DNA of 334 nt from NCBI RefSeq assembly GCF_003334765.1, contig NZ_QOWT01000138.1. The stretch is one strand, 5' to 3'. The notes beneath the pieces are model-generated. The model did no database searches, had not been told where the DNA came from, and was given only the letters and a program-made list of their open reading frames with translations. Positions within the stretch are counted from its first letter, which is position 1; each line of letters begins with the position of its first letter. Below are positions 31 to 334 of this stretch, piece by piece. Source of the stretch: Escherichia coli. GTDB lineage: Bacteria > Pseudomonadota > Gammaproteobacteria > Enterobacterales > Enterobacteriaceae. Made by a program: the position numbers and the translations under genes.

Positions 31-334
31 TTTCCGCTTCGCTGCAACAACGTAAAACTCGCACCCGCCGCAGCATGTTGTTTGTGCCTGGTGCCAATGC
101 CGCGATGGTCAGCAACTCCTTCATCTACCCGGCTGATGCCCTGATGTTTGACCTCGAAGACTCCGTAGCATTGCGTGAAAAAGACACCGCCCGCCGCATG
201 GTTTACCACGCGCTGCAACATCCGCTGTATCGCGATATTGAAACCATTGTGCGTGTCAACGCGCTGGATTCCGAATGGGGTGTTAACGACCTGGAAGCCG
301 TCGTTCGCGGTGGTGCGGACGTTGTGCGTCTGCC
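27..334 (+). CDS. citE: Citrate lyase beta subunit (citryl-CoA lyase), N-terminal 102 codons; 3'-truncated by the window edge
   Basis: ATG at 27-29 is preceded by a strong SD. The frame is open to the end of the window (102 full codons plus 2 nt). Translation: [103 protein letters not shown]. It contains the LFVPG...D-LED...RVN pattern typical of the HpcH/HpaI/CitE family and matches my recollection of the E. coli CitE N-terminus. Codon usage is enterobacterial (ctg, ccg, cgt/cgc, no rare TTA/CTA/TCA). Confidence 0.9.

Follow-up and report, generated by a model that had tools for sequence, protein, structure and literature searches.

The 334-nt window of E. coli DNA analyzed here, the whole stretch, carries the end of citD and the beginning of citE, and the best overall explanation, which we regard as nearly certain, is that this citE has the intact active site of its family, with residue roles that can be assigned by homology to liganded structures. 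An initial annotation had proposed that the acidic cluster F-D-L-E-D-S and the Arg of a V-R-V-N motif sit where HpcH/HpaI/CitE-family enzymes usually place substrate- and metal-binding residues. We found that this observation was correct and that its interpretation was supported after one correction: the acidic cluster serves as a metal site of the second shell, acting through water, and includes an Asp that orients the Arg. Both citE, a textbook gene, and its motifs are already known. The useful outcome is a verified residue map of E. coli CitE, in which D42, E44, D45 and R76 fall within the window and E139, D166 and D280 lie beyond it.

The window contained a single long open frame, which ran from an ATG at 27–29 to the window end (102 codons); coordinates are window positions on the plus strand unless a locus is named. 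In the remaining frames and on the opposite strand there were only ORFs of 20 and 24 amino acids, which were rejected as genes at this size. By Megablast, the window was found in 5422 of 5,426 complete E. coli genomes (99.9%), with many matches 100% identical, and the annotation under these matches was citD (citrate lyase acyl carrier protein) and citE (citrate (pro-3S)-lyase subunit beta). Based on translation, annotation and HMMs, positions 27–334 are the 5′ part of citE and encode residues 1–102 of a full-length protein of 302 aa. Positions 1–30 are the 3′ end of citD (gamma subunit), read in frame 1 as ...PALPWEDCQ* with the TGA at 28–30, in agreement with the RefSeq annotation. The corresponding RefSeq protein was WP_000622357.1, the K-12-like copy of E. 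coli CitE (TIGR01588, EC 4.1.3.34, citryl-CoA/citryl-ACP lyase). The window encodes this same protein: the DNA was 100% identical, the protein was identical with no differences at all, and the citCDEFXG context was shared. At locus L001 the gene order was dcuC, dpiA, dpiB, citC, citD, citE, citF, citX, citG, citT, which is the classical E. coli citrate-fermentation locus; citE thus has the neighbors expected of it (citC, citD, citF, citX and citG), with dpiBA upstream.

In the citrate lyase complex, the substrate is a citryl thioester on the 2'-(5''-phosphoribosyl)-3'-dephospho-CoA prosthetic group of CitD, made by CitF, and CitE converts citryl-S-ACP (citryl-CoA) to acetyl-S-ACP and oxaloacetate, as is known for the E. 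coli and Klebsiella enzyme. The earlier reading of the protein as a canonical citryl-CoA lyase was right in that it is the CitE equivalog, and needs to be amended in that the physiological substrate is CitD-bound citryl-S-ACP, not free citryl-CoA.

An Rfam scan of both strands of the window at E≤1 gave zero matches, and no promoter-like sites, terminator-like sites or inverted repeats were seen when the window was scanned for them. A direct repeat of 23 nt with 74% identity was observed at 27–49 and 198–220 (ATGATTTCCGCTTCGCTGCAACA and ATGGTTTACCACGCGCTGCAACA). Each copy starts with a Met codon in frame (M1 and M58), and this two-copy repeat within coding sequence is most likely due to chance.

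The stop codon of citD (TGA, 28–30) overlaps the start codon of citE (ATG, 27–29) as ATGA at 27–30, an overlap visible in both sequence and annotation (at L001, citD ends at 6030 and citE starts at 6027). This classic arrangement suggests that translation of the gamma and beta subunits is coupled. A strong Shine-Dalgarno-like GGGAGGA, putative in function, sits within the end of citD at 14–20, 6 nt 5′ of the citE ATG. An alternative start at M17 (ATG 75–77) was rejected because the TIGR01588 profile aligns already from residue 12; it was also disfavored because the ATG at 27 has both the GGGAGGA Shine-Dalgarno and the overlap with the citD stop. In some relatives the two subunits appeared to be joined. 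Among 118 full-coverage CitE representatives (from the best 150 of 14,039 matches, see below), 32 were longer than 320 aa, most of them ~380–430 aa, with the CitE match beginning near residue 100–118. The three long representatives examined (P0008, P0022 and P0056) had an N-terminal CitD (acyl carrier protein) domain and, judged from their sequences, may be CitD-CitE fusion proteins, either as real fusions or through gene-calling read-through.

Profile searches agreed with the gene assignment. The expected match to the family HMM was found: CitE aligned with Pfam PF03328 (HpcH_HpaI) at E=2.1e-88, with residues 15–234 covering model positions 1–221 of 221, and a C-terminal match to PF15617 (C-C_Bond_Lyase) covered residues 210–299. 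Also, CitE passed the curated cut-off of the NCBIfam equivalog TIGR01588 (citE) with 452.1 bits against 443.4, over profile positions 1–288 of 288, and the 102-residue window fragment alone matched positions 1–91 of this profile at E=1.1e-40. The RipC_Ccl and malyl-CoA lyase models (the pair NF041626/NF038242) gave 172.7 against a cut-off of 375 and 57.4 against a cut-off of 500, respectively, so that CitE belonged to neither.

The HpcH/HpaI aldolases proper proved to be distant relatives. Pairwise BLASTP of CitE and E. coli HpaI gave no significant alignment. The HpaI sequence used was 100% identical to 2V5J and 4B5S (4B5W is the R70A chain), and hhalign of the CitE profile with it gave E=2.2e-4 at a probability of only 45%; at this probability, CitE D37/D42/E44/D45/R76/E139/D166 fell on HpaI D37/D42/E44/H45/R70/E149/D175. 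It has been reported that HpaI binds an octahedral M2+ through Glu and Asp, pyruvate and waters, that its Arg (Arg72 in AbHpaI, Arg70 in EcHpaI) hydrogen-bonds the C4-OH or the aldehyde carbonyl, and that a Glu/His/water network works in proton transfer (PMC8560999). The class II pyruvate aldolases (HpaI 2V5J/4B5S, GarL 1DXE, YfaU 2VWS) share PF03328 with CitE, and HpaI and CitE have a common logic of two carboxylate metal ligands, an Arg at the end of β3 and a water network held by the β2 loop. Unlike CitE, HpaI has His45 in place of Asp45, lacks the C-terminal lid and its catalytic Asp, and uses 2-keto acids instead of thioesters as substrates. Since CitE has Asp45 and the PF15617 lid, it did not fit the HpaI type (D-x-E-H, no lid, ~250 aa). 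CitE is a member of the HpaI Pfam family with shared catalytic logic and is not an HpaI-type aldolase. The proposal that its active-site residues occupy the usual family positions holds across the whole Pfam family, with the mapping onto HpaI at the 45% probability given above.

The flagged residues could be placed exactly. The FDLEDS motif occupies 147–164 as proposed, with F41 at 147–149, D42 at 150–152, L43 at 153–155, E44 at 156–158, D45 at 159–161 and S46 at 162–164; V75-R76-V77-N78 occupies 249–260, with the Arg76 codon CGT at 252–254 and N78 at 258–260. Phmmer against PDB sequences returned 13 distinct sequences, every one a CitE-like enzyme, including the malyl-CoA lyases 5UGR, 4L9Y, 4L7Z and 6KIN, D. 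radiodurans “CitE” (1SGJ), RipC (3QLL), human CLYBL (5VXC), M. tuberculosis Rv2498c (1U5H, 1Z6K, 6AQ4), 8KHL and 9NZB; the best of these was ~30% identical to CitE. The alignments of CitE to 4L9Y, 4L7Z and 1U5V ran through the FDLEDS motif without gaps, and those to the malyl-CoA lyases stayed gap-free on to VRVN. In the 4L9Y chain (R. sphaeroides MCL, MCL-R), whose count is the published numbering plus 21, D63-L-E65-D66 and R97 correspond to the published Asp42, Glu44, Asp45 and Arg76. Similarly, N58-L-E60-D61 and R92 of 4L7Z (C. aurantiacus MCL) and D34-L-E36-D37 and R64 of 1U5V (Rv2498c) aligned to CitE D42/E44/D45/R76. Beyond the window, CitE E139, D166 and D280 aligned to MCL-R Glu141, Asp168 and Asp299. 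The counted chain numbers matched the published active-site residues of MCL-R and MCL-C (PMC3832036) and Arg64, Glu112 and Asp138 of Rv2498c (PMC6689899). The residue correspondence, which had first been put forward on sequence motifs alone, is thereby placed on gap-free alignments: D42, E44, D45 and R76 fall on named active-site residues of the MCLs and Rv2498c. CitE has the full catalytic set of the CitE-like superfamily, namely D/N-x-E-D after β2, an Arg at the β3 end, Glu and Asp as Mg ligands and a lid Asp/Glu.

A predicted structure was consistent with this placement. The AlphaFold2 model of CitE, built from an 85-sequence alignment (A2), had a pLDDT of 96.9 and a pTM of 0.92 and showed a β8/α8 barrel with a helix/β-hairpin/helix lid, the hairpin (272–279) lying between helices. 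The predicted barrel strand β2 spans residues 38–42 (138–152), with D42 last, and E44 and D45 lie in the loop that follows; the predicted strand β3 spans residues 72–76 (240–254), with R76 last. In the model E139 comes after strand 133–138, D166 after strand 157–162 and D280 after the lid hairpin, so that D42, E44, D45, R76, E139, D166 and D280 are all predicted to be on the C-terminal (catalytic) face of the TIM barrel. The top Foldseek matches in the PDB were MCLs (4L9Y, 5UGR), CLYBL (5VXC) and Rv2498c, with E of ~1e-22 to 1e-24 and TM of 0.83–0.87. These scores are global, and the residue equivalence is based on sequence alignments and model topology.

We further examined how strictly these residues are retained. 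Among 1.84 billion representatives, a full HMMER scan found 14,039 matches with E≤1e-3, and the best 150 of them were taken. A first count on these best 150 of 14,039 contained apparent motif substitutions; four of the sequences that deviated, P0003, P0091, P0137 and P0144, were later excluded, as phmmer matches CitE only in their C-terminal part and the N-terminal “substitutions” are alignment artefacts. Without these four, the representatives covering CitE residues 15–295 numbered 118 and were 35–63% identical to E. coli CitE. Among these 118 (from the best 150 of 14,039), E44, R76, N78, E139 and D166 were present in 118/118, D42 and L43 in 117/118, D45 in 116/118 and D280 in 115/118. The catalytic set D42/E44/D45/R76/E139/D166/D280 was 97.5–100% conserved in this sample, in which the average column retained the E. 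coli residue in ~40%. The conservation of the flagged residues is far beyond chance. F41 and S46 were not individually conserved, alternating with L and A, respectively. In the independent alignment A2 (85 sequences), D37, E44, K52, R76, N78, E139, D166, G225 and P246 were invariant, and D42, L43 and D45 were ≥90% conserved.

Several other residues were as well conserved as the flagged ones. D37 (135–137), K52 (180–182), R56 (192–194), N78 (258–260) and D88 (288–290) were 98–100% conserved; of these five, N78 alone had been covered before, as part of the V-R-V-N motif. Candidate roles of these residues may be CoA-phosphate binding, salt bridges and barrel capping. Beyond the window, CitE has an Asn, N233 (L001:6723–6725), in an I-x-P motif that reads “LINP”, and His is the usual residue there among the representatives (“IHP”); among the best 150 of 14,039 matches, position 233 was H in 86, N in 31 and S in 11. 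N233 may be a subfamily marker.

The role of the acidic cluster was read from liganded homologues. In MCL-R, the coordination sphere of Mg2+ consists of Glu141 and Asp168, two waters and two oxygens of the ligand; the motif Glu and Asp of the MCLs hydrogen-bond the two Mg-coordinating waters (Zarzycki & Kerfeld, PMC3832036). The inner sphere of Rv2498c is alike: Glu112 and Asp138 hold Mg2+ together with two waters and the ligand, and the 3-hydroxyl is near Arg64 (PMC6689899). These structures bear on the literal meaning of “metal-binding residues”, that is, that D42, E44 and D45 ligate the catalytic metal directly. Such ligation might seem to be favored by the mutant MtbCitE E36A (equivalent to CitE E44), which lost ~83% of activity and ~80% of Mg2+ binding, the latter loss exceeding that of direct-ligand mutants (PMC7164622), and by the fact that D42, E44 and D45 are as conserved as the known ligands. 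However, the MCL inner sphere is made up of Glu141 and Asp168 with two waters and two oxygens from the substrate, with Glu44 and Asp45 bonded to the waters only (PMC3832036), that of Rv2498c is composed in the same way (PMC6689899), and Glu36 of MtbCitE has itself been described as acting via a water molecule (PMC7164622). Direct ligation by the acidic cluster is already contradicted for the homologues and is very unlikely for CitE. The cluster consists of active-site residues, as had been proposed, and this part of the claim stands; its residues are not direct metal ligands, since E44 and D45 (156–161) work through water and D42 hydrogen-bonds the Arg. The direct Mg ligands E139 and D166, as well as the lid Asp D280, fall beyond the window.

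The pair E44-D45 consists of second-shell carboxylates equivalent to MCL-R Glu44/Asp45, Rv2498c Glu36/Asp37 and HpaI Glu44/His45. D42 (150–152; 117/118 in the sample above) corresponds to MCL-R Asp42, which hydrogen-bonds Arg76 of that enzyme, the position being taken by Asn58 in MCL-C from C. aurantiacus (PMC3832036). R76 (252–254; 118/118) is the catalytic, substrate-contacting Arg, equivalent to MCL-R Arg76, MCL-C Arg92, Rv2498c Arg64 and HpaI Arg70. The MCL Arg76 hydrogen-bonds the substrate hydroxyl, is a candidate base and is conserved across the CitE-like superfamily and malate synthases, and MCL-R Asp299, on the lid of the neighboring subunit, is the proposed proton-abstracting residue (PMC3832036). 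In MtbCitE, R64A (equivalent to R76), E112A and D138A were impaired like E36A; D37A (equivalent to D45) showed no obvious change in activity (PMC7164622), despite 98% conservation of D45. The contribution of D45 is uncertain because the MtbCitE D37A enzyme is active, though D45 is 98% conserved. Besides, the citrate-cleavage assay behind these values (PMC7164622) does not agree well with the β-hydroxyacyl-CoA lyase function later assigned to Rv2498c (PMC6689899).

The behavior of D37A (PMC7164622) also raised the question of whether the motif residues, D45 in particular, are conserved mainly for barrel folding or stability, through strand-end capping and salt bridges, and the equal conservation of D37, K52, R56 and D88, to which no catalytic role is assigned here, points in the same direction. 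We consider this improbable given the strong impairment of E36A and R64A (PMC7164622), the specific contacts to metal-bound waters and substrate seen in the structures (PMC3832036, PMC6689899) and the implication of the equivalent HpaI His45 in a proton relay (PMC8560999). There is a further idea, for which we see some chance, albeit a small one: that E44 and D45, beyond holding the Mg-bound waters, form a proton relay deprotonating the citryl C3-hydroxyl via a metal-bound water, like HpaI His45, with R76 only stabilizing the oxyanion. If true, such a relay would mean that the general base of the CitE-like superfamily has to be assigned anew, R76 not being the base proposed for the malyl-CoA lyases. 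The reported activity of MtbCitE D37A despite the 98% conservation is puzzling in this respect.

Under the preferred reading, a citE with an intact family active site, the mechanism in E. coli would be as follows. CitE is a TIM-barrel enzyme that carries a C-terminal lid, and within the HpcH/HpaI family it falls in the CitE-like branch. By analogy with the homologues, Mg2+ would be held directly by E139 and D166 together with the citryl C3-hydroxyl, a carboxylate and two waters, and these waters would in turn be hydrogen-bonded by E44 and D45 in the loop after β2. R76, the last residue of β3 and probably oriented by D42, would contact the C3-hydroxyl/oxyanion, polarizing the hydroxyl and stabilizing the oxyanion/enolate. 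The C–C bond would then be cleaved in a retro-aldol (retro-Claisen type) step to acetyl-S-ACP and oxaloacetate, with D280 from the lid of the neighboring subunit as the likely proton donor/acceptor at the acetyl α-carbon, protonating the acetyl enolate. These roles are inferred for E. coli CitE by transfer from malyl-CoA lyases, Rv2498c and CLYBL. Literature and PDB searches turned up neither a solved structure nor mutagenesis for E. coli CitE or another complex-forming CitE, and no experimental CitDEF structure; the closest chains were stand-alone CitE-like lyases, ~25–31% identical. The roles are only homologue-derived for this reason, the best PDB match being ~30% identical.

The relatives from which these roles are taken resemble CitE to different degrees. 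The malyl-CoA/β-methylmalyl-CoA lyases (R. sphaeroides 4L9Y/4L9Z, M. extorquens 5UGR, C. aurantiacus 4L7Z/4L80) have the fold in common with CitE (TM 0.82–0.87) as well as the D/N-x-E-D...R...E...D...D(lid) constellation, and the MCL-R numbering D42/E44/D45/R76 is coincidentally identical. They differ from CitE in sequence (~29–31% identity), in their use of free CoA thioesters, in having glyoxylate as the aldehyde partner and in MCL-specific insertions, whereas CitE acts on an ACP-tethered citryl thioester within the CitDEF complex. Rv2498c (“CitE”, 1U5H/1Z6K/6AQ4), Y. pestis RipC (3QLL) and human CLYBL (5VXC) belong to the same CitE-like superfamily. In Rv2498c the equivalents of the CitE set are D34/E36/D37/R64/E112/D138, and Glu and Asp bind Mg2+ along with the substrate and two waters. 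Unlike CitE, these three are stand-alone β-hydroxyacyl-CoA (citramalyl-CoA/HMG-CoA) lyases or thioesterases, come from organisms or pathways without CitD and CitF, and are ~25–30% identical to CitE.

Variation among E. coli genomes supported an intact gene. The alleles L002 and L004 (98.5% and 98.8% nucleotide identity; 4–5 differences per 334 nt) encode the identical protein WP_000622357.1. All five differences of L002 (positions 167, 173, 206, 257 and 326) were synonymous third-position changes, and the codons of D42, E44, D45 and R76 were untouched. It had been noted before that the segment gave no sign of divergence or pseudogenization; this was borne out, as the divergent alleles sampled carry synonymous changes only and the frame is open. 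The citE in the window is intact and under purifying selection. Decay of this copy could be imagined for a gene of citrate fermentation, for which E. coli requires a co-substrate, so that the genes are perhaps dispensable; moreover, the segment is missing from 4 of the 5426 genomes, and a prophage end lies in the citD 3′ end of E. coli TOE17. Several findings speak against decay or loss of function of citE: the frame stays open up to the window end, the gene has its full length of 302 aa, all seven active-site residues are present, the TIGR01588 cut-off is passed, 99.9% of complete genomes have the segment and the sampled divergent alleles differ synonymously only. The idea of decay is already effectively refuted, and we assign it a practically negligible chance.

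At the TOE17 locus (L003, NZ_CP069093.1, 481–1510), the match begins at window position 11, the junction being at ~9–11, and citD has no annotation upstream of citE. Directly upstream are com and a Mom-like DNA-modification gene (PHROG E=1e-13 and 3e-83), which identify the right-hand boundary of a Mu-like prophage inserted in the citD 3′ end, ~16 nt ahead of the citE start codon. This strain retains an intact Shine-Dalgarno and an intact citE. In addition, the segment was found at 5463 places in 5422 genomes, i.e., some E. coli genomes hold two copies of it; it was absent from 4 of 5426 genomes, and two copies were located on plasmids.
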